The translations under genes and the position numbers were made by a program. 64,000 nt of DNA from Candidatus Allochristensenella caecavium (GTDB lineage Bacteria; Bacillota; Clostridia; Christensenellales; QAND01): contig CAJFOS010000013.1 of assembly GCA_904397865.1 (NCBI GenBank), positions 1-64,000 on the forward strand, written 5' to 3'. Below the pieces are notes generated by a model that saw only the letters and a program-made list of their open reading frames with translations, made no database searches and was not told the DNA's origin. Shown one piece after another: positions 1-20,882 of this stretch (position 1 is the first letter of the stretch; every line of letters begins with the position of its first letter).

Positions 1-173
1 ATATAATTTAAAATAAAATTGATATATCAGTTTTTTCTCCTATTGATAAGAAAACATAACAAAAGAGGAATGGAACGAAATTGTCTGATTTTCCGCGCAA
101 GGTAAAGCCGGTGATGCAACAAACCAAAGGCCTCACAAATATGAAATGAAGGCAGTCGGTGAGATTTTCAGAA

Positions 174-204
174 AGTAACCGGTAGAAATGTCGGTTACTT
201 TTTT
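174..204 (+). terminator. Rho-independent terminator of an upstream gene outside the window
   Basis: GC stem gtaaccg/cggttac with a 4-6 nt loop, followed by TTTTTT, immediately before the kinase gene RBS. Confidence 0.5.
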
Positions 205-226
205 GATAAGAGTGAGGTGAGACCGT

Positions 227-1513
227 ATGAGTGAACTGAGGTATGCCAATATCGCGCTGGATATTTTCAGCATGATGCTATCCTCGCTGCCCGTTATTTA
301 TCTGATTAGCAACCATCGATATCGGCTAAAGCTGAATCAATATTTTTTGGGAATATGTCTTTCGAATATTCTCATGACAGTGGGAGACTTGGGGGACTGG
401 ATGATGCCCGCCGTCATCACGCTATCGGATAGGGTGACGCTGATGGTTCTTACGGTTCTCTATTATGCGGCCTCTGCATTTATCTTATATTTTTTTATAC
501 GGTATATCATAGAATACCTGCAACTGAGAGGGCGTGTAAAACAGGCATGCTTGCTTTACACAATATGCCTTTGCAGCGTACAGATTATTTTTGCCGCAAT
601 AAGCCCGTTTACCGGTTCGATTTTTCGTGTTACGGTTGACGGATATCAACGCGGTCCGTTGTTTTTGTTATCACAGTTCATCCCGTTGTTTTGCTATATT
701 CTTTGCATCGTGCTGGTGATTGCCTATCGAGATAAGCTTTCGCGGCGGGAAACGATGTTCTTTTTGCTCTATATCTTTCTTCCGTTGGGCAGCGGTACTG
801 CCCAGATGGCCATGCGAGGAATTGCCGTAGTCAATGCAAGCCTCACCATTGCCATGTTATTGATTTTAATGAATATTCAATTTGAACATGAGGTGGCGAT
901 GAAAGAGCAGGAAAAGGAGCTGGCCGAACGGCATATTGATGTCATGCTCAGCCAGATACAGCCCCATTTTCTATATAATTCGCTAAGTGTTATCTATCAT
1001 TTGTGCGAAGAAAATCCTGGAAAGGCGCAAAAGTCCATCAAAGAATTTTCCGCATTTCTGCGCGGAAATATGAATAGTTTGAAAGCCCGCAAACCGATTC
1101 CGTTTGAAACGGAACTCAACCATGTTATGAATTACCTTTATTTGGAACGGCAGCGGTTTCAGGAACGGCTGCATGTGGTCTGCCAGATACAGACGACGGA
1201 TTTTTACATTCCGCCTTTAACGCTCCAACCGCTGGTAGAAAATGCCGTGCAGCACGGGATTCTCAACAAAGACGAAGGCGGCACTATTTCCATCTGTACA
1301 AACAGGACGGCGGAATATGCCATTGTGACCATCATGGATAACGGAATTGGTATGGAAAAGGCGAAGACCTATACGGCGCATGGCGCGCACGCCCACATCG
1401 GGATTGAAAATGTCCGCCAGCGATTGAAAAGCATGGTCAACGGCACATTGGATATTGAAAGCAATGAACGTGGAACAGTGGTTACGCTGCAAATTCCGTG
1501 GACGGGGAGATAG
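227..1513 (+). CDS. Sensor histidine kinase, LytS/YehU-type, multi-TM N-terminus
   Basis: About 6 hydrophobic helices N-terminal. QIQPHFLYNSLSVI matches the His_kinase (PF06580) phospho-His motif. C-terminal GHKL ATPase motifs (ENAVQHG, DNGIGM, GTVVTLQIP). RBS GAGGTGAG upstream. Confidence 0.85.
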   Translation: MSELRYANIALDIFSMMLSSLPVIYLISNHRYRLKLNQYFLGICLSNILMTVGDLGDWMMPAVITLSDRVTLMVLTVLYYAASAFILYFFIRYIIEYLQLRGRVKQACLLYTICLCSVQIIFAAISPFTGSIFRVTVDGYQRGPLFLLSQFIPLFCYILCIVLVIAYRDKLSRRETMFFLLYIFLPLGSGTAQMAMRGIAVVNASLTIAMLLILMNIQFEHEVAMKEQEKELAERHIDVMLSQIQPHFLYNSLSVIYHLCEENPGKAQKSIKEFSAFLRGNMNSLKARKPIPFETELNHVMNYLYLERQRFQERLHVVCQIQTTDFYIPPLTLQPLVENAVQHGILNKDEGGTISICTNRTAEYAIVTIMDNGIGMEKAKTYTAHGAHAHIGIENVRQRLKSMVNGTLDIESNERGTVVTLQIPWTGR

Positions 1514-1525
1514 GAGGCGAGCACG

Positions 1526-2332
1526 ATGCGTTTTTTAGCGGTAGACGACGAAATCTATATACTGGAAGAAATGGTCAAAATCCTCCGCCGTGTCCAGCCC
1601 AAAACGGAAGTGCTGTCCTTTACGCGCCCGGATGAAGCGATTCGGGCGGCTGAGCGACAAACAATTGATGTTGCGTTTTTAGACATCCATCTGGGGAAAA
1701 TGTCCGGTTTGGAGCTTGCAGTGAGACTCAAAAATATCAAGCCGGATATGCACATTATTTTCGTAACGGGCTATCAGGAATACGCTGTGGATGCATTCCG
1801 CATGCATGCAACGGGATATCTGCTCAAGCCGGTGGATGAAAATGATGTAAAGCGGGAATTAACGTTTATTTACGAGGAAGCCCCCCAGAGAAAGAGGATA
1901 TCGGTACAAACCTTTGGCGGATTTGAACTGTTTGTAGACGGACGGCCAGTTCATTTCGGCCGTGCGAAATCCAAAGAGCTGCTGGCCTACCTGGTGGACC
2001 ATCGGGGGGCAGTCGTTACGGCGGCGGAAGCGCGAGCTGCGCTGTTTGAGGAAATGGGGAATACTGGTACGTCCAAGAGTTACTTTCATCAACTGGTGTA
2101 TGAACTAAAAAATGCCTTAAAGAAGGCAGGGGCGTCGGAAATCCTTACCAAAGGATTTAATGGCTATGCCGTTGTCCCGGAAAAATTTGACTGCGATTAT
2201 TACCGGCTCCTGCAAGGGGACCCAATTGCCATTAATCAATACCAGAATGATTATATGCCGTTATATAGTTGGGGAGAAGCGCACAACGCCGAACTCTGGC
2301 TCAAGCATGTATATGCCACCCCGCCTGAATAA
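1526..2332 (+). CDS. Response regulator: receiver domain plus OmpR/SARP-type winged-helix DNA-binding domain
   Basis: Receiver signature (VDDE...DIHL...K). C-terminal FGGFELFVDGRPVHFGRAKSKELLAYLV...LWL pattern typical of trans_reg_C/SARP wHTH. 13-nt gap to the kinase gene, so an operon. Confidence 0.8.
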   Translation: MRFLAVDDEIYILEEMVKILRRVQPKTEVLSFTRPDEAIRAAERQTIDVAFLDIHLGKMSGLELAVRLKNIKPDMHIIFVTGYQEYAVDAFRMHATGYLLKPVDENDVKRELTFIYEEAPQRKRISVQTFGGFELFVDGRPVHFGRAKSKELLAYLVDHRGAVVTAAEARAALFEEMGNTGTSKSYFHQLVYELKNALKKAGASEILTKGFNGYAVVPEKFDCDYYRLLQGDPIAINQYQNDYMPLYSWGEAHNAELWLKHVYATPPE

Positions 2333-2397
2333 AAAGCAATATCCGTTCATCGGGGAACCAATGGCAGGGTAGCTGCATCAGCGCACCATTGCCGGCA

Positions 2398-2436
2398 AGC
2401 AAAAGCTCCGGGAGAAACTCCTCGGAGCTTTTGCTT
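2398..2436 (+). terminator. Rho-independent terminator after the two-component pair
   Basis: Inverted repeat aaaagctccggg-agaaac-tcctcggagctttt followed by a T-rich tail. Confidence 0.55.
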
Positions 2437-2523
2437 ATTGTGATTTAACCGGCGGATTTGTAAGGGTTTTGTGATGCGCGGTCAGTAGAATGAAATTGTA
2501 TAAGCAAAGAAGTGGGGGATACC

Positions 2524-3516
2524 ATGACAATTTTGCTCGTTGACAGCGATAAAAGGGCGCTGGACCGGGAAGCCAAACGCCTGGCGGACCAGCAATCTGC
2601 CGCCATGGTTGTCCTGCACAGCAACGCCAACGATGCCTTGAAATTTGCAATGTATCATGATGTGCATATTGTTTTTACAAGACCCGCACTGGTGGAGATG
2701 TCCGGCCAAGAATTGATTGAAAAAATACTTCGCTTCAAGCCGGAAGTGGAATGCCATATGCTCGCACAGGGCGAGGAAGTTCCGCTTGTGTACTTTCTGG
2801 GTAAAGACAAAGATGCGTTCCGTTCCGAGAACGTAAGTGACAGCCACACAAAGATGAATGATACAAAAGGTGAAATGCATACAATCAAGAATAAGAAGAG
2901 GTCGGGAAACGATTCTCCTCAAGAGGGGCAAAAGAAAGGCGATACACATATGACGGAACGGCAGTTACGCAGTTTGGGCAGAAAAGAACTTTTGGAAATG
3001 ATGATTGAACAGGGAAAAGAACTGGAGTTTGTCAAATCGGAACATGCAAAAGATTTGGAATTTGTAAAAGCGGAGCACGAGAAAGAAATAAATGCGTTAA
3101 AACAAGAGCTGGAGAAAGCCCGCGCAGCCCTGCAGAACCGGGAAATCGCTATCAATGAAGCGGGCTCGATTGCGGTGGCGGCCCTTCAGATAAACGGGAT
3201 TTTTGAAGCGGCGCAGGCCGCGAGCCAGCAATATATCGAAAATATCCGTACGCTCAATGACCGGCAGGCGGCGCTCTGTGCCCAGCGGGAGGAAGCAAGC
3301 CGGGCCGAAGCCGAACGGCGGCTGAGAGAGACGGCCGCCAAATGTAAGACCATGGAGGCGGCGTGCCGGGACAAATGCGCGGCGATGGAACGCGATGCAC
3401 AACAGCGTTCGGAAGCATACTGGACGGAGGTTTCCAAACGCCTGCAATCATTCTATGAGAATCATCAGGAGCTGAAAAAACTCCTGGGTTATAGCATCCC
3501 AGGGATTCAAATATAA
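2524..3516 (+). CDS. Hypothetical protein: degenerate (pseudo-)receiver domain fused to a long coiled-coil
   Basis: N-terminal 100 aa align to the upstream receiver (ILLVDSD...VHIVFTRPALVEMSGQEL), but the phospho-acceptor Asp position is T/R. Low-complexity linker, then a heptad-rich coiled coil with the tandem repeat ELEFVKSEHAKDLEFVKAEHEKE. RBS GTGGGGGA. Confidence 0.6.
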   Translation: MTILLVDSDKRALDREAKRLADQQSAAMVVLHSNANDALKFAMYHDVHIVFTRPALVEMSGQELIEKILRFKPEVECHMLAQGEEVPLVYFLGKDKDAFRSENVSDSHTKMNDTKGEMHTIKNKKRSGNDSPQEGQKKGDTHMTERQLRSLGRKELLEMMIEQGKELEFVKSEHAKDLEFVKAEHEKEINALKQELEKARAALQNREIAINEAGSIAVAALQINGIFEAAQAASQQYIENIRTLNDRQAALCAQREEASRAEAERRLRETAAKCKTMEAACRDKCAAMERDAQQRSEAYWTEVSKRLQSFYENHQELKKLLGYSIPGIQI

Positions 3517-3529
3517 ACGGAGTGCCGGT

Positions 3530-4114
3530 ATGAAACGCAAATCAATCACCTGTTTGCCCACGGTACAGCAACTGGAGCAGGAACTGAAACGGGAAGCCTA
3601 TCGGAAGCGGTATCGGAGAATGTTGGGCAGTACGATTTCGACGCTCATCGTTGTGGCGGCGGCTGTCGTGCTGATATCCCATCTTTTGCTGCCCATCCTG
3701 CGGATTTACGGTACGTCGATGACGCCGACTCTGACGGACGGCAACATTGTTGCAGCTATAAGAAAAGGTTCCTATGAGCGCGCAGACATCATCGCTTTTT
3801 ATTACAATAACAAAATTCTGGTAAAACGTGTGATTGGCTTGCCGGGGGAATGGATAGACATGGATGAAAACGGCAATGTGAGCATCAACGGGCAAACCTT
3901 GCAGGAGCCGTATTTGAAAGAAAAAGCGTTCGGGGAATGTGATATCCAGTTCCCTTACCAGGTGCCTGACAGCCGATATTTTGTCATGGGAGACCATCGC
4001 AGTGTTTCCAGCGATTCCCGTAACAGCGATGTAGGGTGTGTGTCAGAGGAGGATATCGTGGGGACGTTGGTCTTTCGGCTCTGGCCGCTGAACGAATTGG
4101 GCGAGATTGAATAG
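3530..4114 (+). CDS. Signal peptidase I, SipW/archaeal-ER type, pilus-associated
   Basis: N-terminal TM. Box B GTSMTPTL (Ser nucleophile). Box D VMGDHRSVSSDSR (His general base, SipW type). Sits immediately upstream of the pilin genes, as SipA/LepA does in streptococcal pilus islands. Confidence 0.8.
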   Translation: MKRKSITCLPTVQQLEQELKREAYRKRYRRMLGSTISTLIVVAAAVVLISHLLLPILRIYGTSMTPTLTDGNIVAAIRKGSYERADIIAFYYNNKILVKRVIGLPGEWIDMDENGNVSINGQTLQEPYLKEKAFGECDIQFPYQVPDSRYFVMGDHRSVSSDSRNSDVGCVSEEDIVGTLVFRLWPLNELGEIE

Positions 4115-4134
4115 TTTTGGGAGGGAGGTTTGCC

Positions 4135-7100
4135 ATGAAACCACAGGATAAACAAAATAAAATCCAGGAATATATACGGGAACACAAGTTGAGAAAACGC
4201 TGGCATAAGCTGACCGCTGTCCTGGCGGCAGCAGCGATTGTGGTAACGACTACCGTTATGGTTCTGCCGGCTCTTACCCTGGAGAACGGCCCGAAAGTGC
4301 TGGCGTGCCAGCTGAATCTCCATACCCATATTGCCAGCTGTTATGACGAATCGGGCAGCCTTGTTTGCGGATATGCGGATTTTGTTGCACATGTTCATAA
4401 CGAATCCTGCTACGCCGAAGACGGAACGTGCATTTGTTCGCTGGAAGAAATCCGGCCTCACACGCACGATGAATCATGCTACCAGGAAACACTCGCCCAA
4501 GTGTGTGGATTTGATGGTGAGGAGCATGCGCATACGGATGCTTGCTATATGATGGCGGACGAATTGGTTTGCGGGCAGGAAGAAACAGCGCCGCATGCCC
4601 ATACGGAAGATTGCTATGATGCGAATGAGGGCCTGGTTTGCAAACAATCGACAGACGCACATGTCCATACGGAACAATGTCATGCGCGTTCTGAGGAGCC
4701 AATCTGCGGCAAGGACGAGCAAATACATACGCATACCGACGCCTGTTATGAAGCCCATAGGGAATTGGTTTGCGGCAAAGAGGAAATCGTTTTGCATACC
4801 CACACTGCCAGCTGCTTTGATGCGGACGGCAAGCCGGTTTGCGGCAAGATGGAAGTCAGGGAACATATCCATGACGCCAGCTGCCTTCCTGCTGAAATCA
4901 AAACGGACAAACAAACAAGCTGGGCGACGGTGGATAAGAACGGATTCAAGGCTGCAAGAAGGCGCACTGCCGCCACAAACGCCTTGCGCGCGGCGCAGAG
5001 CGTGGACTTCACGCAGTATATTACACAAATGTCCCTTTCCAAAGCGGTTGATGGACAATGGGTACCGGTTACAGAGGTCACGACCGGCGATTCCATCCGG
5101 CTGAACATCCACTACACGATTCCAGAAAATGTGGTGGGGCCGGATTCTCGGGTGATTCACTACCAGCTGCCCAAGGGAATCGGGCTGGAGGAACAGGCAA
5201 CCGGACCGGTCACCATCGAAGGCAGTTATGCCGGCGAATACGTGATACAACCGGGAGGACTTATCCAGATTACCTTCACCCAGGCATTTGCCGACAACCG
5301 CCCCTTTACAGGGGAGCTGGAATTCCAAGGCATTGTTACCGCCACTGGCCAGGAAGGAGAAGAAGAAATTGATTTGGGCACTGCCGGCGGCACGGTCACG
5401 GTAAAACCGGATGAGGAGGCAACCGACCTTACCGTGGCCAAAGAAGGATGGTATGACAAGGAAAATAATCTTATTTACTACAGCATCACGGTGTCCAGTG
5501 AACAGGGAACGGATGGGCCGCTGACAATGGAAGATGCCTTTATGCATCAGCCGGATTATGGGGTTGTCAATTATAAAGAGGTAGTTGAATTCTATAAGCT
5601 GAATGCCGATGGAACCAAAACCCATCCCTTGGATGAGCAAAGCCTCTTGGCACTTTTGCATATAAGTGGCCAGACACCGGACAAAACCGCCTCTTTCACG
5701 CTGGGGCCCTTGCCGGCTTTAGGGGCTGGAGAATCGTATGTGTTTGCCTATACCGCTGAACCGGACCTGAATGTATCCGGCGACGCAAACGGCTATACGC
5801 AGTTTGCCAACACAGCGGTAGCCCATGACGACAGCCATTCCGCCCAAGCCAGTGTGAACATCAAAGTATCGGATACAATGGTTCACAAGGAAGGCGTATA
5901 CGACCCGTTGACGCAGAAAATCAAATGGTCGATTTATCTCAACGAGAGCCAGCGGGACATCGGCGGGCTGCGGCTGGAGGACACGCTTACCTACACGGCC
6001 AACGGACAGATATACACGGCGGATTTGCCGGAGACTGTCCAGATTGAACTGTTCCGGGATTACCAGCCGCTGGGGATTGTTGAAAACATATCGATTCCAT
6101 TCACCTTCCCGGAAAATTCCAACGTACAGTATCTGGTTACTTATGAAACGGAGATGCCGGCCAATCTCCCAGATGGAAGCTATGTTACTTTCCACAATAC
6201 GGTGCGGCTGGGAAGGTACGAGGTGGAAATTGACGTTGACGGTTACGCCCCCGGCGATTATGGGGTGATAAAGGGAATGACGGACGCCGATTCAGATACG
6301 GGCATTGTGGAATGGGCCGCGTCTATCGCACACCCGACACCCCTGGATATTCAAAAGCTGCACTATGTGGATTGGATTCCCAATCTGCTTCTGGCAGACG
6401 GCACATTTTTGCCGGGTAGCCATTACACTACCCCGCGGCTTCTGGCCGATTCGCTTCGGATTCAGGCGGTGGAGGGAGCGTTTCTGCAATACGGAACCGA
6501 CTATACGCTGCAGGCAGTCTCCAAAGCAGACGTTGAAGCCCTGATGGAGGAACTTAACCTGACGGATGAGAACCTGACCTGGGCAGTGCAGGAACTTTCA
6601 TATGAAGAGCTGTCGCAATACTTCCGCCTGCAGCCTATCGGAAGCTTTGAGCAGGATGAACCGCTTGGGCTGTTCTCCATCGAATTTCAGACGAGCGCCA
6701 TAGGGAAAATCGGCGAAGCCAGTCTTTTGCTTACCTACCACACGCAAGTGAATGTGAGCAATTTACCCGCAGGGGTTGAACGGGCGACGGTGGGGAATCT
6801 GGGGCGAATTCCGGATGGCTATATGCTGGCGCGGGGCAACATGTCCTTTGGTGCGAGGCTGAATAAACAGGCCAGCCAGACCGGTATCCCTGAGGCGGGC
6901 AAGGATTCCAGCTCCTATACCGATGTTCCGCTGACCGTCCATTCAGGCGATACAGATGGAATCCTACACTACCGAATCCTGATTTCCGATTATAGCAAAT
7001 ATAACGATGAGAATGCAGTCACGGTGACGGATACGCTGCCGGCCGGGGCCAAGCTTGTAAAGGATTCAGTCGTCTTGCGCAGCCATCCCAACGGGTTTAA

Positions 7101-8700
7101 CACCTTCGATGTCCAAACGACGGACCCCTGGTATATAGCGCAAGTTTCCACAGTTGAAAACCCGGACGGAACGACGGCGGTCACTTTCTTCATCTCGCAT
7201 ATCAAGGACCTAAGCGGAGCTCCCTTCGGCATCTACTATGACGTTTCCGTTGCGCAAGACGGAGAACTTATCAGCAGCGGCGAAAAGCAATATACCAACA
7301 CCGTGGCCTGGGATGGGGAAACCGACAGCACGACCACCACGGTAAAACACACCTTGCCCCGTCTGGAAAAGGTGGGAGAGCGGCTCCAAGCGGCGGAGGG
7401 GGCGGAAGAGCTTTCCGACAGGTTGCGCTACTATGTCACTATCAACCCGACGGGCGAACGGCTGAATCCGTATGACAACCACCTGACCTTGGAGGATGTG
7501 CTGAGCATCCCGGCTGGCAGCAGTGCGAGTTTTCCGCCGGATAGCGTAAGGCTTTACCGCTATAATTCAGCCGATGCGGAAAACCACTTCTGCGGGGAAG
7601 CCATCGACCCGTCGCTGTATTCCGCCGAGTACGATGGTGCGACACGGACGATTACGTTCACAATACCGGACCGGACCGCCTGCGTCCTGGTTTATGACTA
7701 TATCATTGACCGTGGAACAGCCGCCGGGGATTTGAACATCTTTAACACGGTAAAACTCAGCGGGCATGGGGAATTCTCTTCCGAATCGGGAATCGTTATG
7801 GAAGAGGAACAATCCTCCGCCACGGTGAATAAGGCGACGGTGACGATTTATAAGCACGAAAGCGGCAACTCGCTGCATCTGCTGCCTGGAGCAACGTTCC
7901 GGCTGGAACGATATGAACAGACCGGCGCTGGATACGAATGGCGGCAGACCTCCGCCACGGCGACAGGTGCGGGCGGATTGTTCGTAGTCGGTGAGGAAGG
8001 CAAGATTGTGCTGAGCTTTGTGAACGAAACCTCGCTGTACAATACGCTGTACCGCCTGCAGGAGATTGACGCCCCGGATGGGTATTTGAAGAGCGACGCC
8101 ACGTACTACTTTATCTGGGGTGAGCGGGGCGAGACAAAAGAGGCGGCGCTTGCGCGGATGCAGGAAAACGGAGCGCTGGGCAATGTGCCCCTGGAACAGA
8201 TTGGCTTTGTTGCTTTTTCCACCTCCCATGCCATCTATGTTCCCAATGAGCCCGATGCGTTGACCGTCGTCAAGACATGGCGCAACGACGCGGGCGAGGT
8301 TTTAGAACAAGCGCCGATAGGGGAGGTTACCATCCAGCTGTACCAGTGGAAGGACGGCGTGAAGACCGCCTATGGCAATCCGGTGGAACTAAATGCCGGA
8401 AACGGCTGGTCGTATACCTGGAATGCGCTGCCCAAAGTGGATGGGGACGGGAAATCTTATCATTACACGGTGGAGGAAGACCCCTTATCCGGTTTCCAGA
8501 TTGCATATGTCAACAATGAAGGCGTTCAGACTGGGATGATTGAGGTCGTCAATACGCAAAACGAATATGTCCTGCCGGAAACCGGTGGAGCGGGGCCAAG
8601 GTTCTTTTTCCTTGCAGGGCTGCTTCTTGCCGGAGCGTCTGCCGCCGGATACGTATATTTGAGGCGCAGACATCGGAAGGAGGGAATGCCCCTTCAATAA
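4135..8700 (+). CDS. Pilus tip adhesin / LPXTG surface protein with N-terminal Cys/His-rich tandem repeats
   Basis: Signal/TM segment. About 9 tandem H-x-H...C-Y...L-V-C-G units (aa 64-256). Central beta-rich region. E-box-like YRLQEIDAPDGY. C-terminal CnaB/SpaA-type isopeptide domain (VVKTWRND...YHYTVEE). LPETGG, hydrophobic span, then RRRHRK tail. The ORF track starts at TTG 4117; ATG 4135 follows RBS GGGAGGGAGG. Confidence 0.85.
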   Translation: MKPQDKQNKIQEYIREHKLRKRWHKLTAVLAAAAIVVTTTVMVLPALTLENGPKVLACQLNLHTHIASCYDESGSLVCGYADFVAHVHNESCYAEDGTCICSLEEIRPHTHDESCYQETLAQVCGFDGEEHAHTDACYMMADELVCGQEETAPHAHTEDCYDANEGLVCKQSTDAHVHTEQCHARSEEPICGKDEQIHTHTDACYEAHRELVCGKEEIVLHTHTASCFDADGKPVCGKMEVREHIHDASCLPAEIKTDKQTSWATVDKNGFKAARRRTAATNALRAAQSVDFTQYITQMSLSKAVDGQWVPVTEVTTGDSIRLNIHYTIPENVVGPDSRVIHYQLPKGIGLEEQATGPVTIEGSYAGEYVIQPGGLIQITFTQAFADNRPFTGELEFQGIVTATGQEGEEEIDLGTAGGTVTVKPDEEATDLTVAKEGWYDKENNLIYYSITVSSEQGTDGPLTMEDAFMHQPDYGVVNYKEVVEFYKLNADGTKTHPLDEQSLLALLHISGQTPDKTASFTLGPLPALGAGESYVFAYTAEPDLNVSGDANGYTQFANTAVAHDDSHSAQASVNIKVSDTMVHKEGVYDPLTQKIKWSIYLNESQRDIGGLRLEDTLTYTANGQIYTADLPETVQIELFRDYQPLGIVENISIPFTFPENSNVQYLVTYETEMPANLPDGSYVTFHNTVRLGRYEVEIDVDGYAPGDYGVIKGMTDADSDTGIVEWAASIAHPTPLDIQKLHYVDWIPNLLLADGTFLPGSHYTTPRLLADSLRIQAVEGAFLQYGTDYTLQAVSKADVEALMEELNLTDENLTWAVQELSYEELSQYFRLQPIGSFEQDEPLGLFSIEFQTSAIGKIGEASLLLTYHTQVNVSNLPAGVERATVGNLGRIPDGYMLARGNMSFGARLNKQASQTGIPEAGKDSSSYTDVPLTVHSGDTDGILHYRILISDYSKYNDENAVTVTDTLPAGAKLVKDSVVLRSHPNGFNTFDVQTTDPWYIAQVSTVENPDGTTAVTFFISHIKDLSGAPFGIYYDVSVAQDGELISSGEKQYTNTVAWDGETDSTTTTVKHTLPRLEKVGERLQAAEGAEELSDRLRYYVTINPTGERLNPYDNHLTLEDVLSIPAGSSASFPPDSVRLYRYNSADAENHFCGEAIDPSLYSAEYDGATRTITFTIPDRTACVLVYDYIIDRGTAAGDLNIFNTVKLSGHGEFSSESGIVMEEEQSSATVNKATVTIYKHESGNSLHLLPGATFRLERYEQTGAGYEWRQTSATATGAGGLFVVGEEGKIVLSFVNETSLYNTLYRLQEIDAPDGYLKSDATYYFIWGERGETKEAALARMQENGALGNVPLEQIGFVAFSTSHAIYVPNEPDALTVVKTWRNDAGEVLEQAPIGEVTIQLYQWKDGVKTAYGNPVELNAGNGWSYTWNALPKVDGDGKSYHYTVEEDPLSGFQIAYVNNEGVQTGMIEVVNTQNEYVLPETGGAGPRFFFLAGLLLAGASAAGYVYLRRRHRKEGMPLQ

Positions 8701-8768
8701 CGCATGCCCCACGAATGTGAAATAACCTAAGGCGACCATGTTTCAAACAAAGGGAGGAGAATATTTCC

Positions 8769-10487
8769 ATGAAAAAACTGAAAAAACTGGCGGCGGCTTT
8801 ACTGTCGCTGGCCATGACGGCGATGCTCGCTGTCCCGGCCTTTGCGCAGGCAGGTGATTATTCCATCACCATCAGCAACACAAATGCAAACCATACCTAT
8901 ACCGCCTACCAGATTTTCAAGGGCGATGTTTCCGGCGGGACTGGGGATGGCACAACGGGCAACAGCACCTATCTTTTATCCAACATTGAATGGGGCTCCG
9001 GCGTGCAGAATATCAGCGGTCTGCTCACTGCGCTGAAAACCCAAGCGGGATTTACATCGCTAACCGACCAGTCCACCGCTGCTGATGTGGCAAAGCTGCT
9101 GGACAGTGCCGCGGATTTGGAGACCTTCCTGACGGTGCTCAATGGGACGCCCGGTTACCTGAGCAGTACGGCCGCGGGGACAGCTACGCCTGGCGCAGGG
9201 ATGACTGCATGCACCATCAACCTGACCGAGGGCGGTTATTATCTGGTCAAGGATAGCCTTGCCGGAGAAACCCCCGACGACTTCGTCAGCGATTATATCG
9301 TTCAGGTCCTGGGCCAGGAAACCATGGCCCCCAAAGGCGATAAGCCCACCGTTGAAAAGAAGGTCTATGAGGAGAGTCTCTCCGCCGCCACCACGGACTG
9401 GGGCAATGGCTACAACGACGTAGCGGACTATGATATCGGTGATGCCGTCCCCTTTAAGATTGTTGCCTCCATCCCTGACATGACCGGTTATAACGGTTAT
9501 GAGTTTGTTATCACTGACACCCTCTCCAATGGACTGACCTTGGCCGAGGACACGCTTCAGGTCTACGTAACCGCTGCCAAGGACACCGCGCTGGATGCGC
9601 TGACTCCGCTGAGTGCGGGAACGGATTACACGCTGGCCACTACGGACATTGGTGATGCGAGTTTTACCCTCACCTTTGAGAACATGGAGGAGAATGAGGA
9701 TTTTACCGCTTCAGATGATAATTACATCATTGTCACTTATACTGCAACGCTGAATGAAAATGCGGAAATTGGCCTGGACGGCAATCCCAACGAGGTTGAC
9801 CTGACCTATTCCAATGACCCCAACGGCAAAGGCAAAGGGAAAACCCCCAAGGATTATGTTGTCGTGTTCACGTATGAACTGGACGGCACGAAGGTCGATG
9901 GAAAAAATACGGAGACCAAACTTAAGGATGCGGAATTTGTCCTGTTGAACAACGCCGGTACTCAGGTAGCGAAGATAGACAGCAACGGCAAGTTTGACGG
10001 CTGGGTGAATGTGCCGGATGGTTCCGGTGACGCCGGTGCAATCACCTATGGTGACTGGACGACATTTAATCAGACCCACAAGGTCATCATGACCTCTGCG
10101 GAGACATCCGGCAGCTTCGGCATTTCCGGGCTGGACGAGGGCGCCTATCTCCTGCGGGAGATAAAGGCTCCTGAGGGCTACAATCTAATCAAGAACGACC
10201 AGACGCTGGTCATCGCCGCCAGCACCGGCGAAGTGCAGAATTATAATGGGACGGCTTCCAGTGTACTGACTACCCTGACGCTTAAAGTCGGCGAGGAGGA
10301 ACCGAAGGCCGGCAATGTGGCCGACGGTACCGTGGCCATTGAGGTGCCCAATAATGCCGGCGCTACGCTGCCTGAAACCGGGGGCGTCGGTACGACTATC
10401 TTCTTCGTGCTGGGCGGTGTGATGTTGCTTGGAGCGGGCATCCTTCTGACTGTGCGAATTCGCATGAAGGCTACCAATCGCCAATAA
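8769..10487 (+). CDS. Major (backbone) pilin subunit, LPXTG-anchored
   Basis: Signal peptide MKKLKKLAAALLSLAMTAMLAVPAFA. E-box YLLREIKAPEGYNL. LPETGG plus TM plus RIRMK tail. Thr/Gly-rich Ig-like regions. Strong RBS GGGAGGAG. Confidence 0.85.
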   Translation: MKKLKKLAAALLSLAMTAMLAVPAFAQAGDYSITISNTNANHTYTAYQIFKGDVSGGTGDGTTGNSTYLLSNIEWGSGVQNISGLLTALKTQAGFTSLTDQSTAADVAKLLDSAADLETFLTVLNGTPGYLSSTAAGTATPGAGMTACTINLTEGGYYLVKDSLAGETPDDFVSDYIVQVLGQETMAPKGDKPTVEKKVYEESLSAATTDWGNGYNDVADYDIGDAVPFKIVASIPDMTGYNGYEFVITDTLSNGLTLAEDTLQVYVTAAKDTALDALTPLSAGTDYTLATTDIGDASFTLTFENMEENEDFTASDDNYIIVTYTATLNENAEIGLDGNPNEVDLTYSNDPNGKGKGKTPKDYVVVFTYELDGTKVDGKNTETKLKDAEFVLLNNAGTQVAKIDSNGKFDGWVNVPDGSGDAGAITYGDWTTFNQTHKVIMTSAETSGSFGISGLDEGAYLLREIKAPEGYNLIKNDQTLVIAASTGEVQNYNGTASSVLTTLTLKVGEEEPKAGNVADGTVAIEVPNNAGATLPETGGVGTTIFFVLGGVMLLGAGILLTVRIRMKATNRQ

Positions 10488-10500
10488 TCCCTTTTTTATG

Positions 10501-10544
10501 GCTGCCACGGCCGGGGGCGTTCTCCCTTCCGGCCGTGTGGCAGT
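10501..10544 (+). promoter_or_regulatory. GC-rich stem-loop between the major pilin and sortase genes (partial terminator/attenuator)
   Basis: gctgccacggccgg-(15 nt loop)-ccggccgtgtggcag is a 13-bp stem with one 2-nt bulge. No U-tract, so read-through into srtC is likely. Typical pilin>sortase stoichiometry device. Confidence 0.45.
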
Positions 10545-10558
10545 AGGGAGAACCTTGC

Positions 10559-11419
10559 ATGAAAAATGATGATTTAAAAAAGAACAAGAGAGTTTCCATC
10601 CTGTTGATAATCGTTTTTTTTGCAGGGTTGTTTTTACTGCTGTATCCAGTGGTCAGCGATTATTGGAACTCGCTGTATCAATCACGTGCTATTTCCTCTT
10701 ATGTAGATGTGGTGACGGAGATGGATGACGACTCGTATGAAGACATGTGGAAGCAAGCGCAGGCGTATAACGCCGCCCTGCAGGGCAATCCAAACCGTTT
10801 CCAGCCCAGTGAGGAGCAAAGGAAAAACGGTGAAAAGCTGTTGGATGTCACGGGGAATGGCATCATCGGCTATGTCGAAATTCCATCGATTGACGTCATG
10901 CTGCCCATTTATCACGGAACCGATGAGGAGGTTTTGCAAGTCGCCATTGGACATGTTGAAGGCTCCTCTCTCCCGATAGGCGGTGCAGGAACGCATTGTG
11001 TCATATCCGGTCACCGTGGGCTGCCTTCCTCCAGATTGTTTACCGACCTGGACCAGCTGGCGGAGGGAGATATCTTCATTCTGCGGGTGTTGGATGAAAC
11101 GCTGACCTATGAGGTGGACCAAATCCGCATTGTAGAGCCGGAGGATATCTCTTTATTGGGAATCGAAGAGGGGAAGGACTTTTGTACCTTGGTGACCTGT
11201 ACGCCGTATGGCGTCAATTCCCACCGCCTTTTGGTACGGGGCCATCGGGTAGAGAATCAGCAGACATTCCAAACGCTGCGCGTTACGGCGGATGCGATGC
11301 TGGTTGATGCACGCCTGGTTGCACCAATACTCGCAATCCCCATTCTGCTGGTTCTTGTATTGCTGGTGGCGCTGCGGCCGCTGATGAGAAAAAGAAAATC
11401 CGAAAGAGGTGATAAATAG
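10559..11419 (+). CDS. srtC: Class C (pilus-polymerising) sortase
   Basis: N-terminal TM. Catalytic His (VISGHRG). TLVTCTPYG Cys motif. LLVRGHRV Arg. C-terminal hydrophobic anchor plus KRK tail, typical of class C. Confidence 0.85.
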   Translation: MKNDDLKKNKRVSILLIIVFFAGLFLLLYPVVSDYWNSLYQSRAISSYVDVVTEMDDDSYEDMWKQAQAYNAALQGNPNRFQPSEEQRKNGEKLLDVTGNGIIGYVEIPSIDVMLPIYHGTDEEVLQVAIGHVEGSSLPIGGAGTHCVISGHRGLPSSRLFTDLDQLAEGDIFILRVLDETLTYEVDQIRIVEPEDISLLGIEEGKDFCTLVTCTPYGVNSHRLLVRGHRVENQQTFQTLRVTADAMLVDARLVAPILAIPILLVLVLLVALRPLMRKRKSERGDK

Positions 11420-12364
11420 ATGAAAATCCGCATGCCTTGGAAGCGCATTGGAGCGACGTTATTGGCTGTCGTGATGGGAATCGGCTGCATATCGGCTGCC
11501 GCGTTTGCCCGGGAAAGTATCGAGACTGACAGGGCAACTTCGCTAAGCATATATTTTGGTGCAGATGGAATCGGGTTTTCTGCAGTGAACTTTTCCATTT
11601 ATCGCGTGGCAAATACTTCGGAAAACGGCGCCTTCACATTGACGGGAGATTTTGCCGACTATTCCGTCAACCTGGAGGACCTGGATAGCTCCGGCTGGCG
11701 GGCGCTGGCCCAGACGCTCGCCGTTTATACGGCACGGGATGAATTGAAACCGCTTCGTACGCAGAGAACCGGACAGGGTGGACGGGTCAGCTTTGCGGGC
11801 CTTGCCGTGGGATTGTATTTGGTAATCGGTGAGGAATATGCAGATGCAAACGCCATCTATACCCCGGAACCCATGTTGGTATCCCTTCCGGAATGGACGG
11901 AGGAGGGGGACTGGAACTACGGCATAGAGGCCACATGTAAATTTGACCGTAGGGATAAGACGCCTGGGCGGGTAAGCCGTAAGGTACAGAAGGTTTGGAA
12001 GGATGACGGCAATGAGGACACGCGGCCCAAAGAGATTTCCGTGCAGCTTCTGGAGAACGGGACTGTTGTCGATACCGTCCTATTGAACAAGAAAAATAAC
12101 TGGGAATATACGTGGGAGAATTTAGACAGCAACGCAAGGTGGCAGGTGGTCGAATCGGAAGTGCCGGCTGGATACACCGTCACCGTAGCGCAGGAAGGAA
12201 CGATATTTGTCATAACGAATACCCGCCCGTATGAACCGCCGCCCAAACTGCCTCAAACAGGAATGCTGTGGTGGCCAGTGCCAGTGCTTGCCTGCGGCGG
12301 ATTGTTGTTGGTATTAGCTGGATGGATGGTGCGGCGTAAGCAGGGAGATTCCCATGGAAAGTAA
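11420..12364 (+). CDS. Minor/basal pilin with CnaB-type domain, LPQTG-anchored
   Basis: Signal peptide. CnaB-like KVQKVWKDDGNEDTRPKEISVQLLENG...YTVTV. Pro-rich PYEPPPK preceding LPQTGM plus TM plus RRKQ. Start overlaps the srtC stop (translational coupling). Confidence 0.75.
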   Translation: MKIRMPWKRIGATLLAVVMGIGCISAAAFARESIETDRATSLSIYFGADGIGFSAVNFSIYRVANTSENGAFTLTGDFADYSVNLEDLDSSGWRALAQTLAVYTARDELKPLRTQRTGQGGRVSFAGLAVGLYLVIGEEYADANAIYTPEPMLVSLPEWTEEGDWNYGIEATCKFDRRDKTPGRVSRKVQKVWKDDGNEDTRPKEISVQLLENGTVVDTVLLNKKNNWEYTWENLDSNARWQVVESEVPAGYTVTVAQEGTIFVITNTRPYEPPPKLPQTGMLWWPVPVLACGGLLLVLAGWMVRRKQGDSHGK

Positions 12365-12980
12365 AAGAAAAGGAGGAACAGCCCTTATAGCGCTCGGGCT
12401 GCTGCTCATTGCAGCGGCCCTTTTTCTAATCGGATATAATCTGTTTGACGAATACAGAGCCGGGAAAACGGCTCGCCGAGTATTGGCAATGCTGCGGGAA
12501 CAAGCCCCCATTGACGCTGGCATCCCGGAAGTATCGTCGCCGGGCAAGGAAGTCGTTCCAGATTACGTGCGCAACCCGGACATGGAGATGCCGACCAGAG
12601 AGGTTGAAGGCAATGATTATATCGGGATTTTAGAGATTCCGTCATTAGAGCTTTCTTTACCGGTGATGAGCAGATGGAGCTATCCCAAGCTGAAAATTGC
12701 GCCATGCCGCTACAGCGGCTCCGCTTACGAGGGAAACCTGACGATTGTAGCGCATAATTACCGCACCCACTTTGCATCGGTGCGAGATGTTCCGGTTGGG
12801 ACCCGGGTGCTGTTTACCGATGTAAAAGGGCGCATCTTTGCTTATGAGGTTGCGGCGATTGAAACAGTTGAAGCCAATGCCGTCCAGGAAGTGGTGAACG
12901 CTGCATGGGATTTGACGCTTGTTACTTGTACGCCAGGCGGGCAGGCCCGTGTCGCTGTGCGATGTGTAAAGGCGGGATAA
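12354..12980 (+). CDS. Second sortase-family transpeptidase
   Basis: N-terminal TM. His (IVAHNYRTHF). LTLVTCTPGG Cys motif. conserved Arg (ARVAVRC). Overlaps the basal pilin gene end. Confidence 0.7.
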   Translation: MESKRKGGTALIALGLLLIAAALFLIGYNLFDEYRAGKTARRVLAMLREQAPIDAGIPEVSSPGKEVVPDYVRNPDMEMPTREVEGNDYIGILEIPSLELSLPVMSRWSYPKLKIAPCRYSGSAYEGNLTIVAHNYRTHFASVRDVPVGTRVLFTDVKGRIFAYEVAAIETVEANAVQEVVNAAWDLTLVTCTPGGQARVAVRCVKAG

Positions 12981-13218
12981 TTATACTCACCCGTTACCAC
13001 ACATTACTTCCAGTATATAAAAGGATGCAATCAAAAATCATTTTATAGAGAGATAAGACAATCAGCCCATAGCAAAATGAGAAAATGCAAGCATAAAAAC
13101 AGGTGAACCCCATCCCGTGTGGTTGCATCTGGGTTGGGTAGGGATGAGGAAAAAGGGAATGTGTGACACTACTGCCTGTGAAAATGGCGGGGGGTATAGT
13201 GTAAAGAAATAAAAAGTG

Positions 13219-13253
13219 AAAACCCGGCCGCGTAAATGCGCGGCCGGGTTTTA
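13219..13253. terminator. Bidirectional Rho-independent terminator closing the pilus operon and the convergent gene
   Basis: aaaacccggccgcg-taaat-gcgcggccgggtttt is a perfect 13-bp GC stem flanked by A and T runs on both sides. Confidence 0.7.
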
Positions 13254-13269
13254 TAAACAAAGGAATTTT

Positions 13270-14100
13270 TTACAGAGAGGAACGAAGCGAAACCGTTGTA
13301 CAAGGAACGGTTCCATCAAGCAAATCATGCAGACGATGACGGGCATGTCCAATTAGTACGCGCGTTCCTTCCATGGCCGGACCCAGGACATATTCCAATT
13401 TAGCTCGTGCACCGTTGGCGCCGGCACGGCTGGCACCGATACAATGCTCTTGCTGTTTGCGGACATTTTGCAACAGTTCTTCCGGTGTATCGCCAACAAT
13501 CTCCTGAATCAGGGTGGAGGGGTCATGCGGGTCTTCATAAATGCCCTCCACACTGGAGAGAATTACCAGCGTATTGGCTTGCACAAGGCTGGTAATCACA
13601 GCGGCTGTTTCGTCGTTGTCAATACATTCCACGACCTGCTGATGTTGTGCACGCAAAGCCGAAAGTTCCATGCGTCGGTTTTCCTTGGCAGAAACGGGGT
13701 CATTATAGTTGACGATGGGAATAGCGCCCTGTGCAGGACAGCGGAGTAGCATTTGGCGGATATGTTCACGCTTTTGTGGATTATTGAAGTGCTGATGTTC
13801 GACCAACACCTGCCGGATGGAAAAGGACGGGTCGACAAAACGGCGGTAATTTTCCATCAGAATAGCCTGCCCCTGTGCTGCATAGTCGGTTTTGATATCG
13901 TCCAGTTCCCCCTGTAGCTCATGGCCGGTACGATGGCAGTAATCCACACGCCCAATTTCCGTTGCTCCGGAAGAGACAACAATCATCCCCGGACGCAAAT
14001 CTGCGCTTAATCGGGAAAGGGTATTGTAGTCGACTGCGTTATCCTCTTGACGAATCAGGGCCATTGAGCCTATCTTGACGACAAGATTGATGGCGTCCAT
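13270..14100 (-). CDS. Amino-acid kinase family protein, glutamate 5-kinase-like (no PUA domain)
   Basis: VVKIGSMALI, VVSSGA, IPIVNYNDPV and LVILSSVEGIYEDP align with ProB core motifs. ATG at 14100 is preceded by AGGAGG. The ORF track start 14133 is probably too long. Confidence 0.5.
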   Translation of the reverse strand: MDAINLVVKIGSMALIRQEDNAVDYNTLSRLSADLRPGMIVVSSGATEIGRVDYCHRTGHELQGELDDIKTDYAAQGQAILMENYRRFVDPSFSIRQVLVEHQHFNNPQKREHIRQMLLRCPAQGAIPIVNYNDPVSAKENRRMELSALRAQHQQVVECIDNDETAAVITSLVQANTLVILSSVEGIYEDPHDPSTLIQEIVGDTPEELLQNVRKQQEHCIGASRAGANGARAKLEYVLGPAMEGTRVLIGHARHRLHDLLDGTVPCTTVSLRSSL

Positions 14101-14104
14101 GGGA

Positions 14105-15454
14105 TTATTCCTCCTCTTGTGATTCAAAATCATCTTCCGTCACACCTGTATCCAGCGACAACAGGGCGGCGGTATCTGTTTCCGGCAGGCTTTCAACGCT
14201 GCGTAGTTTGCGTTGGATTTGCCGTGTACGCACGCCAACCAAATCCTCCAGTTTATTGTTGGCCTGTTCCAACTGCTTCTGGGTGGCAGCGAGTACATCG
14301 CCGAATTTATTAAATTCGGTTTTTACGGCCCCCAGGATATTCCATACCTCGCTGGAATGCTTTTGAATCGCCAGCGTGCGGAATCCCATCTGCAAGCTGT
14401 TGAGGATAGCGGCCATGGTTGTGGGGCCGGCAATGTTGATATGATAATCCCGTTGGAGCGTTTCGACAAGCCCCCTGCGCACCACTTCGGCATACAGCCC
14501 TTCAAAAGGAAGGAACATAATGCCAAAATCCGTGGTATTGGGCGGGTCGATATACTTATCGCGGATATCCTTAGCAAACTGTTTGATGGTTTTATCCAGG
14601 TTTTTACCAGCGGCGTCAATCGCAAGCTTGTCGCCTGCCTCATAAGCATCTTGCAGGGCGCTGTAGGCGTCCATGGGGAATTTGGCATCTATGGGGAGGT
14701 AAACCGTGCCGGTGTCATCGCCAGGAAGCTTGATGGCGAATTCAACCGGTTTTCCACTGCCGCGTTTGGTCACGACGTTGGTCTCGTATTGTTCGGGCGG
14801 CAGAATTTGTTCTAAAATCGCGCCCAGTTGAATTTCGCCCAGAATACCGCGTGTTTTAACACCGGAGAGCACTTTTTTCAAATCCCCTACACCGGTGGCC
14901 AGCGTTTGCATTTCGCCCAAGCCTTTATAGACCTGTTCCAACCGGTCGCTGACGAGTTGAAAGGACTGACCAATGCGGTCTTCCAACGTTTTTTGCAGTT
15001 TTTCATCAACGGTAGCGCGCATCTGTTCCAGCTTTTTGCTATTATCCTCCTGCAGGGAGGTCAGCTGTTTTTCCATGGTAGTACGAACGTTTTCCAGTTT
15101 CTGTTCGGTTTCTTTGGAAAAATGCGCCAACCGGAGGTCGATATTGCGCATGCTATCGTTGACGGTTTTTTGCAGCATATCGTTGCGCTGAGTTAGCTGG
15201 GCGTTCAATTCGCCCAGCCGCTTATCCTGCACCTGATTGGTTTGTGTCTGTGAAGATTTGAGCATCTCGCCCAAGGTAAGCAAATTGCTCTGGATGGATT
15301 GCGCAACCTCTTGCCTGGTGGCTCGCAGTTCACGCTGCAATTCCTGGCGAAGCGAATCGTTTTGTCCACGGCGGGCACATAAACGCACTTGAATCAAAAT
15401 AAACACACAGAGCAGTACGGCGATGACTGAACAGCCAAGGACGACCCATTCCAT
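14105..15454 (-). CDS. rmuC: DNA recombination protein RmuC
   Basis: N-terminal TM, long coiled coil (QELQRELRATRQEV...), C-terminal RmuC nuclease-like domain (GEIQLGAILEQILPPEQYETN...LPIDAKFP). Confidence 0.8.
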   Translation of the reverse strand: MEWVVLGCSVIAVLLCVFILIQVRLCARRGQNDSLRQELQRELRATRQEVAQSIQSNLLTLGEMLKSSQTQTNQVQDKRLGELNAQLTQRNDMLQKTVNDSMRNIDLRLAHFSKETEQKLENVRTTMEKQLTSLQEDNSKKLEQMRATVDEKLQKTLEDRIGQSFQLVSDRLEQVYKGLGEMQTLATGVGDLKKVLSGVKTRGILGEIQLGAILEQILPPEQYETNVVTKRGSGKPVEFAIKLPGDDTGTVYLPIDAKFPMDAYSALQDAYEAGDKLAIDAAGKNLDKTIKQFAKDIRDKYIDPPNTTDFGIMFLPFEGLYAEVVRRGLVETLQRDYHINIAGPTTMAAILNSLQMGFRTLAIQKHSSEVWNILGAVKTEFNKFGDVLAATQKQLEQANNKLEDLVGVRTRQIQRKLRSVESLPETDTAALLSLDTGVTEDDFESQEEE

Positions 15455-20741: not shown

Positions 20742-20882
20742 TGGATTCCTCCTAACAGCAAAGAGCGCTGTGGGATTTTGCCGAATTTCGTTCGGCCATA
20801 AGAATAGGAAGAGGGCGCGTGCAAGCACCCCTTTTTCCATTATGTTCCGTTTTTGGCTTCCTCATACCAAACACGGACGGTT

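Follow-up and report, generated by a model that had tools for sequence, protein, structure and literature searches.

The question raised by the locus described here is whether one operon can encode the subunits of a cell-surface pilus together with the enzymes that process its tip, polymerize the fiber, and attach it to the cell wall. The locus occupies positions 2524–12980 (+ strand) of a 64,000-nucleotide stretch of DNA, referred to below as the window, which comprises positions 1 to 64,000 of contig CAJFOS010000013.1 from Candidatus Allochristensenella caecavium (Clostridia, Christensenellales). It is a seven-gene operon with a terminator hairpin on either side. From the products it is predicted to encode, we are highly confident that this is a sortase pilus operon, and we think it likely that it directs assembly of a three-subunit pilus by the mechanism proposed below, as a member of a cassette family of gut Clostridia. 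The operon is a genuine one, and pilus operons of its kind are known; it represents a widespread, conserved, and so far undescribed variant, distinguished by a signal peptidase and a probable wall-anchoring enzyme of its own, each of which goes with a conserved sorting signal.

An earlier note on this DNA had read the locus as a sortase-dependent pilus island. The list of open reading frames (ORFs) and searches with Pfam and NCBIfam profiles bear this out: every gene and motif that it had listed was found in place on the + strand, and the locus encodes a tip protein, a backbone pilin of the isopeptide type, a basal pilin with a proline-rich tail, and a sortase of class C. The backbone (major) pilin, a protein of 572 amino acids (8769–10487, +), matches PF16569 (85.3 bits; cut-off 30.5), TIGR04226 (78.1 bits; cut-off 30), and PF17802. 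It has a signal peptide ending AFA|Q, an isopeptide D2 domain and, as had been claimed for it, the E-box YLLREIKAPEGY and an LPETGG motif (LPETG-GVG, from nucleotide 10368). A candidate pilin-motif lysine, MAPK(187)G, aligns with VAVK of the solved pilin 9uvr. The class C, or pilin-polymerizing, sortase (SrtC; 286 amino acids; 10559–11419, +) scores 276.4 bits against NF033745 (cut-off 160), in keeping with the class that the note had given it, and it carries the N-terminal motif GX5YPX2S (Y29-P30), His152, Cys214, Arg227, and a C-terminal membrane anchor. The closest solved relatives in the Protein Data Bank (PDB) are the Streptococcus sanguinis pilus sortase C 8gr6 for the sortase (E = 1.5e-74) and the pilins 9uvr and 9uvm for the backbone pilin (E = 6.7e-43 for 9uvr), which also matches 5xcc at 2.5e-19; the likeness to 8gr6, 9uvr, and 9uvm is one of single components.

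The last two genes of the operon encode a basal pilin and a second sortase. The basal pilin (314 amino acids; 11420–12364, +; PF05738 at 67 bits, and PF16555) has a signal peptide ending AFA|R, a pilin D1-like domain, a CnaB domain, and a proline-rich tail (PYEPPPK), and its sorting signal, LPQTG-MLWWPVP, is encoded from nucleotide 12248, so that the earlier description of a CnaB basal pilin with LPQTGM is correct. Alignment of the family shows Lys174 and Lys191 to be invariant. The gene for the second sortase (208 amino acids; 12354–12980, +; PF04203 at 57.9 bits) was likewise recovered as previously called. Translational coupling had been suggested at two junctions, and the sequence agrees at both: the SrtC stop codon immediately precedes the basal-pilin ATG (11419/11420), and the basal-pilin and second-sortase genes share an 11-nucleotide overlap (12354–12364).

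Comparable cassettes were surveyed in the loci around second-sortase homologs and in 80 loci from a metagenome scan. The gene order signal peptidase, tip, backbone pilin, SrtC, basal pilin, second sortase recurs in 15 of the 31 loci with enough upstream DNA, and the cassette occurs in at least four other, unrelated genomic contexts, where the flanking genes are unrelated each time. Where a homolog has a source name, it is that of an Oscillospiraceae, Massiliimalia, or Acutalibacter genome; the genes that flank the cassette in the window are closest to those of Christensenellales genomes, at no more than 71% identity. By gene order and homology, we assign the window locus to a conserved cassette family of gut Clostridia, spanning Christensenellales and Oscillospirales-type genomes. 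Two variant cassettes (L109 and L128) consist of peptidase, tip, basal pilin, and second sortase with no backbone pilin between them, and in L109 the gene for the class C sortase precedes that for the peptidase.

The earlier note had also proposed that the two sortases divide labor, one polymerizing subunits marked LPETG and the other anchoring a subunit marked LPQTG. Comparison of the cassettes supports a division of labor and shifts the distinguishing mark from glutamate versus glutamine to the residues that follow TG. The basal signal reads [LI]P[QP]TG-xL[WF]WP in all 31 distinct basal pilins (29 with LPQTG, one with IPQTG, and one with LPPTG), whereas TG is followed by GxG in all 36 distinct tip and backbone pilins. 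At position 3, the tip and backbone signals have E, S, N, H, T, G, R, A, or Q, and LPQTG-GIG is the signal of one backbone pilin; because of this variation, E versus Q is not the code, and the comparison identifies the residues after TG (GxG or xL[WF]WP) as the probable sorting discriminator. The pattern matches the published triple-glycine rule of Lacticaseibacillus rhamnosus, under which substrates of the class C sortase are identified by LPxTGGxG, and the housekeeping sortase handles the basal pilin SpaB, whose signal is LPQTGD (PMC5536039). In cassette loci, the second-sortase ORF directly follows the basal-pilin ORF, and the six loci checked all show overlap between the two called genes. 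We read the second sortase as an operon-borne anchoring sortase dedicated to LPQTG-xLWWP, and judge the division of labor between the two enzymes, as set out here, to be reasonably probable.

The second sortase itself has a single N-terminal anchor and the residues His134, Cys192, and Arg199, and it ends at the catalytic domain, without a C-terminal anchor. It falls outside class C, scoring 34.8 bits against NF033745 (cut-off 160) and lacking the YP motif and the C-terminal anchor that its neighbor SrtC has. It also lies far under every other NCBIfam class cut-off, with the models for classes D, E, and GN at about 27–33 bits and no match to class A. The best Foldseek matches of an AlphaFold (AF2) model (predicted local distance difference test score, pLDDT, 78) were class A sortases, namely Streptococcus agalactiae 3rcc, L. 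rhamnosus 7f87, and Streptococcus pyogenes 3fn7, with target-normalized template-modeling (TM) scores of 0.6–0.7. On this model the enzyme looks class-A-like, with class C and E hits at similar E values, and it belongs to no curated class. Class A (housekeeping) sortases combine a minimal fold with one N-terminal anchor, take LPXTG signals that lack GxG, and as a rule have many substrates and are encoded away from pilus loci; the gene described here lies within the operon. Members of its family share an invariant NPDMEMP (residues 74–80) just ahead of the catalytic domain, which may be a lid-like or pseudo-substrate element, and two invariant cysteines (residues 118 and 204) besides the catalytic Cys192, which may form a disulfide or a metal site.

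Relatives of the second sortase number 4,162 at E ≤ 1e-5, and those at 44–45% identity have no pilin, class C sortase, or peptidase homolog nearby (about a dozen loci, for example L124, L136, and L163). In L140, the one locus of this kind that was inspected closely, the sortase (L140:9998–10654) stands alone among transporter and regulator genes, and DPTQEMT replaces NPDMEMP. Another relative is paired with a single protein of 1353 amino acids that ends LPQTG-QTWWPVWL (L098). The second sortase could instead be a further pilin polymerase that inserts the basal or tip subunit, with wall anchoring left to a housekeeping sortase whose gene lies elsewhere. Pilus islands with more than one sortase are common, those of pneumococci and group B streptococci having several class C sortases, and we count this in favor of the polymerase. 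Its weak matches do include class C (PDB 24rr at 6.3e-05, besides the low NF033745 score), and the remainder of the genome lies outside the window. However, the shortfall in class C score and features relative to the neighboring SrtC, the occurrence of relatives alone or with a single non-pilin substrate, and the class A enzymes at the top of the fold matches all speak against a second polymerase, which we consider unlikely.

The tip adhesin, a protein of 1521 amino acids (4135–8700, +), has SpaA and CnaB domains at its C terminus and ends in LPETG-GAG, consistent with the LPETGG motif already ascribed to it. Its ORF extends over 4117–8700; TTG 4117 was considered as the start and set aside in favor of ATG 4135, which is preceded by the strong ribosome-binding site GGGAGGGAGG and was chosen by the gene callers. 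The protein is laid out as an N-terminal basic stretch, a long membrane anchor, a Cys/His repeat array, immunoglobulin-like domains, and a cell-wall sorting signal (8572–8697, +) made up of LPETGGAG, a hydrophobic segment, and a basic tail. Profile searches of the tip protein gave no match to a thioester or von Willebrand adhesin domain. The N terminus consists of 23 basic-stretch residues followed by a membrane-length hydrophobic segment that ends LPALTLE, and the motif PA[ILV]T[LM] stands at the end of the anchor in all readable cassette tips. The other two subunits, the backbone and basal pilins, differ from the tip in having ordinary AFA signal peptides.

The repeat array of the tip (residues 58–250; 4306–4884, +) comprises nine tandem units of 22–23 amino acids with the pattern HxHxxxC-x8-C, each containing two cysteines and two histidines. 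The module has no match in Pfam, NCBIfam, or the PDB, and its AF2 model has a pLDDT of 75.7. Among 3,162 units from 286 related sequences, the modal period is 23 residues, and about 90% of the units have exactly two cysteines and two histidines; the consensus is HtHtdxCYdexgxLiCGleExeg, and arrays of 5–14 units stand at the N termini of giant surface proteins. A profile of the N-terminal module matches 6,426 cluster representatives at the 50%-identity level, with E ≤ 1e-30 for 2,590 of them, and most of the 150 best matches align at residues 1 to about 240 of proteins that are 1,000–3,900 amino acids long. The module also heads CHAP-domain wall hydrolases. Repeat arrays were seen, in addition, in proteins P0134, P0158, P0178, and P0227. 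In the pilus, the Cys2His2 repeats probably form a metal-stabilized stalk at the distal end of the fiber.

The signal peptidase encoded next to the tip gene (3530–4114, +) is a type I enzyme of the bacterial, P-type kind (TIGR02227 at 121.9 bits, cut-off 47; PF10502 at 117 bits). It contains the serine box (SMxPT) and the lysine box (KRxxG) that are typical of P-type enzymes. It had been described as SipW-type, a kind in which a catalytic histidine replaces the lysine, and this does not hold: the archaeal/endoplasmic-reticulum-type model TIGR02228 gives 22.9 bits against a cut-off of 51.85. Alignment with the boxes of Staphylococcus aureus SpsB identifies the catalytic pair as Ser63 (GTSMTPT) and Lys99 (LVKRVIGLPGE). 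Of the two catalytic residues named previously, the serine in GTSMTPTL was thus correct, and the histidine of GDHR was not; this residue substitutes for the asparagine of a box that usually reads GDNR and does not act as general base, the second catalytic residue being Lys99. All 14 complete cassette peptidases retain the Ser box, GDHR also recurs in the cassette homologs, and a pattern search recognized the Lys box in 11 of the 14, the remaining three not having been checked by eye. The further suggestion that this peptidase, unlike SipA, may truly be active is borne out by the presence of Ser63 and Lys99 and by the recurrence of their boxes in the cassette homologs. A catalytically competent peptidase is therefore supported by sequence, on firmer ground than before because of the Ser/Lys boxes.

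Peptidases of the GDHR subfamily are also found directly upstream of PA[IL]T proteins that are not pilus components (L171:750–2804, L174:4389–6317, and L170:8349–9777), and the peptidase of L172–174 is 53% identical to that of the window. No GDHR peptidase stands beside the repeat-bearing CHAP protein in L169 or the LPQTG-QTWWP protein in L098, both of which have canonical signal peptides. Because GDHR peptidases adjoin non-pilus PA[IL]T proteins and do not adjoin these two canonical-signal proteins, their distribution suggests that the peptidase is tied to the PA[IL]T N-terminal signal rather than to pili as such.

Alternatively, the peptidase homolog could assist assembly as a chaperone in the manner of SipA, or could simply be a general signal peptidase of redundant function, rather than an enzyme dedicated to the tip N terminus. 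The S. pyogenes and pneumococcal SipA proteins are needed for polymerization without peptidase activity, and pilin is still polymerized in a Streptococcus suis sipF deletion (PMC2797073). SipA structures are, moreover, detectable relatives of the window peptidase (E = 1e-8). Absence of Ser and Lys defines the inactive SipA/LepA chaperones, but both residues are present here, at the frequencies among cassette peptidases given above, and members of the same subfamily accompany PA[IL]T proteins outside pilus loci. S. pyogenes SipA is without these two residues, but S. suis SipF retains both (PMC2797073), so that there is precedent for an active peptidase within a pilus cluster. A chaperone or redundant role is, in our judgment, improbable, and a peptidase dedicated to the tip signal is the reading we retain.

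One could also suppose that no fiber is made and that the three LPXTG proteins are wall-anchored separately as adhesins, the organism being known here from sequence alone. We think this very improbable, since the locus includes a true class C sortase, its backbone pilin combines an isopeptide D2 domain and an E-box with a lysine that aligns with those of solved pilins, and its basal pilin has a proline-rich tail. The scheme of the earlier note, in which a SipW-type Ser/His peptidase acts beside sortases that tell substrates apart by E versus Q at LPXTG position 3, agrees with the window, where the polymerized subunits have LPETG and the basal pilin LPQTG, but it can hardly be sustained when the bacterial peptidase model passes and TIGR02228 fails, Lys99 lies in a catalytic lysine box, and nine different residues occupy position 3 in related tip and backbone pilins, the LPQTG-GIG backbone pilin among them.

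We propose the following mechanism for pilus assembly. Sec would export all subunits, the backbone and basal pilins by way of their AFA signal peptides, and the operon peptidase would release the tip at PA[ILV]T[LM], where its long N terminus of basic stretch and membrane anchor ends. The class C sortase would cut the tip and backbone pilins at LPET|G and join the subunits through the backbone lysine of MAPK(187)G. The second sortase would capture the basal pilin via LPQTG-xLWWP, the invariant basal Lys174 would accept the fiber, and the second sortase would move the whole fiber onto the cell-wall precursor. If it does anchor the fiber, then the cassette carries its own anchoring, housekeeping-like sortase.

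Several points weigh against this proposal. We infer polymerization, the cleavage sites, and the specificity of the enzymes from motifs and from co-occurrence of genes. The backbone pilin scores just under the cut-off of the SpaH/EbpB subfamily (86.9 against 95), and the fold search cannot separate classes A, C, and E for the second sortase, as all E values fall at about 1e-7 to 1e-6. Threonine at the -1 position is an unusual site for a signal peptidase, and the link between peptidase and PA[IL]T outside pili consists of three contexts and two negative controls. Finally, the window covers 64 kb of the genome, and a separate housekeeping sortase or peptidase could lie elsewhere.

More far-reaching, and held only tentatively, is the idea that the locus contains two separable, undescribed pairs of enzyme and signal: the GDHR peptidase with PA[ILV]T[LM], and a new sortase class with LPQTG-xLWWP, which would anchor from within the operon. 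The PA[ILV]T[LM] signal would then head thousands of giant surface proteins of gut Clostridia, typically before a Cys2His2 metal-binding array, which is conceivable and, in our view, falls short of likely.

Among known systems, SpaCBA-SrtC1 of L. rhamnosus GG resembles the window operon in having three subunits, a tip and a backbone with LPxTG-GxG for the class C sortase, a basal pilin (SpaB) whose LPQTG lacks GxG and which is a substrate of the housekeeping sortase SrtA, and a class C sortase with GX5YPX2S (PMC5536039, PMC4829219). The anchoring sortase of L. rhamnosus is encoded elsewhere, and a review states that such enzymes are "invariably found elsewhere". Unlike the L. rhamnosus GG system, the window operon has a non-class-C sortase as its last gene, overlapping the basal-pilin gene, and adds a peptidase, a pseudo-receiver protein (described below), a tip with Cys/His repeats, and the invariant basal xLWWP. 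The S. pyogenes FCT and Streptococcus pneumoniae PI-2 clusters (SipA) and the S. suis srtF cluster (SipF) share with it a gene of the signal-peptidase family, and the window peptidase is like SipF in keeping the catalytic Ser and Lys and unlike SipA, which is without both (PMC2797073). The streptococcal clusters, unlike the window operon, have no second, non-class-C sortase, and no special N-terminal signal of the tip has been described there.

At the Clostridium perfringens VR-10B locus (CnaA/FimA/FimB), three pilins are encoded together with a signal peptidase, a sortase, and a two-component system (PMC8088525). The C. perfringens pilin chains 5xcc and 6ixy match the backbone pilin at about 1e-18, and sortase C 6ixz matches the class C sortase at 2.6e-48. 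Unlike the window locus, VR-10B uses class B sortases (PMC8088525), and neither for VR-10B nor for Cpp (CppA/SrtC) has an LPQTG-xLWWP signal, a member of the second-sortase family, or Cys/His repeats been reported. Corynebacterium diphtheriae SpaABC, the archetype for the model proposed above, likewise has a tip, shaft, and base, a polymerizing SrtA (class C), and a separate anchoring enzyme, SrtF, for the basal pilin (PMC5536039); its anchoring sortase, unlike that of the window operon, is of class E and unlinked, and there is no peptidase.

Sortase pili are major colonization factors, and to our knowledge mechanistic understanding of them comes almost wholly from pathogens and lactobacilli. 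The cassette described here is common in uncultured gut Clostridia. It offers a testable rule, GxG versus xLWWP after LPxTG, for how pili are built and anchored by enzymes encoded in the operon, and an operon-borne anchoring sortase would challenge the textbook view that the anchoring sortase is always encoded elsewhere. The locus further suggests that a signal peptidase is dedicated to a distinct N-terminal signal, and it draws attention to a large Cys/His repeat module, so far without annotation, on surface proteins. These findings leave the basic picture of assembly by sortases unchanged.

The first gene of the operon (2524–3516, +) was absent from the earlier note, whose range begins at 2524; this position is the ATG of a separate gene for a protein of 330 amino acids, and not the start of the peptidase gene. 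The protein has a truncated receiver-like domain (PF00072 at 21.8 bits, a weak match below the cut-off), a coiled coil, and a C-terminal domain in which EAGSIAxAALQxNGxFEAAQ is invariant in the alignment; apart from the weak receiver match, it has no Pfam or NCBIfam family. The alignment shows T, V, or A at the phospho-acceptor position. The family has 277 members, few of which have a source name, and all of these are called "hypothetical protein". The gene adjoins the peptidase gene in 11 loci with readable flanks, and it once lies downstream of the cassette instead of upstream. We class this pseudo-receiver/coiled-coil protein as a putative conserved cytoplasmic partner that is part of the operon. 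A short form of 137 amino acids without the receiver adjoins the peptidase gene in L175 (L175:12219–12632). A 327-amino-acid gene product encoded upstream of the non-pilus peptidase in L173 was considered as a homolog and discarded when comparison showed no homology.

The operon had been described as accessory DNA, which is accurate in that it varies between species; within the species it is present in all ten contigs found, its G+C content is core-like, and mobility genes and repeats are lacking. The cassette and the adjacent two-component system stand beside the amino-acid-kinase gene in none of 80 related species. In a longer contig, a pyruvate:ferredoxin oxidoreductase gene lies upstream of the histidine kinase gene. 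Here about 13.5 kb separate the pyruvate:ferredoxin oxidoreductase gene from the amino-acid-kinase gene, compared with 0.1–3 kb in five relatives, and the DNA that begins with the histidine kinase and ends with the second sortase therefore looks like a lineage-specific insertion. In Guopingia tenuis, three small metabolic genes lie between these two. Composition gives no sign of foreign origin (53.0% G+C in the island against 53.6% in the rest of the window), and no mobility or integrase genes and no flanking repeats beyond chance-level short ones were found around the inserted segment. The comparison of strains for presence or absence of the island, which had been suggested as a check, revealed no variation: the ten contigs, chosen by an identical amino-acid kinase, all contain it, and since all are at least 99.6% identical, they make a weak test.

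Upstream of the operon lie a sensor histidine kinase of the LytS/YehU type with seven transmembrane segments (227–1513, +; PF06580 at 1.6e-20, and the HATPase_c domain PF02518) and its partner response regulator (1526–2332, +; receiver PF00072 at 2e-21 and a weak winged-helix match to PF00486 at 0.0035). The kinase gene lies within the same inserted segment as the pilus operon, and in 80 relatives it is not found beside the amino-acid-kinase gene. A terminator-like hairpin with a 16-bp stem (2397–2436, +) closes the two-component operon and forms the 5' boundary of the pilus operon.

At the 3' end, both a probable bidirectional terminator and the AT-rich spacer are present as had been described, the terminator lying 238 nucleotides past the last gene. 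An AT-rich 3' untranslated spacer with 40% G+C (12981–13218, +) is followed by a perfect palindromic hairpin of 14 pairs, ten of them G-C, with A/T runs on both sides (13219–13252), which adjoins the convergent amino-acid-kinase gene and likely serves both this gene and the pilus operon as a bidirectional terminator. Taken as 12981–13269, the spacer has 41.5% G+C, compared with 53% for the island. Its predicted folding is stronger than that of all 100 shuffled sequences (z = -4.9), for which the terminator hairpin is partly responsible. An Rfam scan of positions 1–14500 found no riboswitch or leader, and its two sub-threshold small-RNA matches both lay on the terminator hairpin. Within the operon, a stem-loop between the backbone-pilin and SrtC genes (10501–10545, +; -35.9 kcal/mol, z = -3.3) covers the SrtC ribosome-binding site with its outer pairing, and it may set the ratio of pilin to sortase expression.

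Two further observations concern genes downstream of the island. A large gene for a CLIPPER/CARDB-type surface protein (18339–20840, −) occurs as two alleles, with 96.6% and 99.4–99.7% identity to the window, in strains that otherwise share at least 99.6% identity over this region. The RmuC gene is split into two ORFs of 155 and 305 amino acids in one strain (L181:5784–7152), which is a frameshift or an assembly error.

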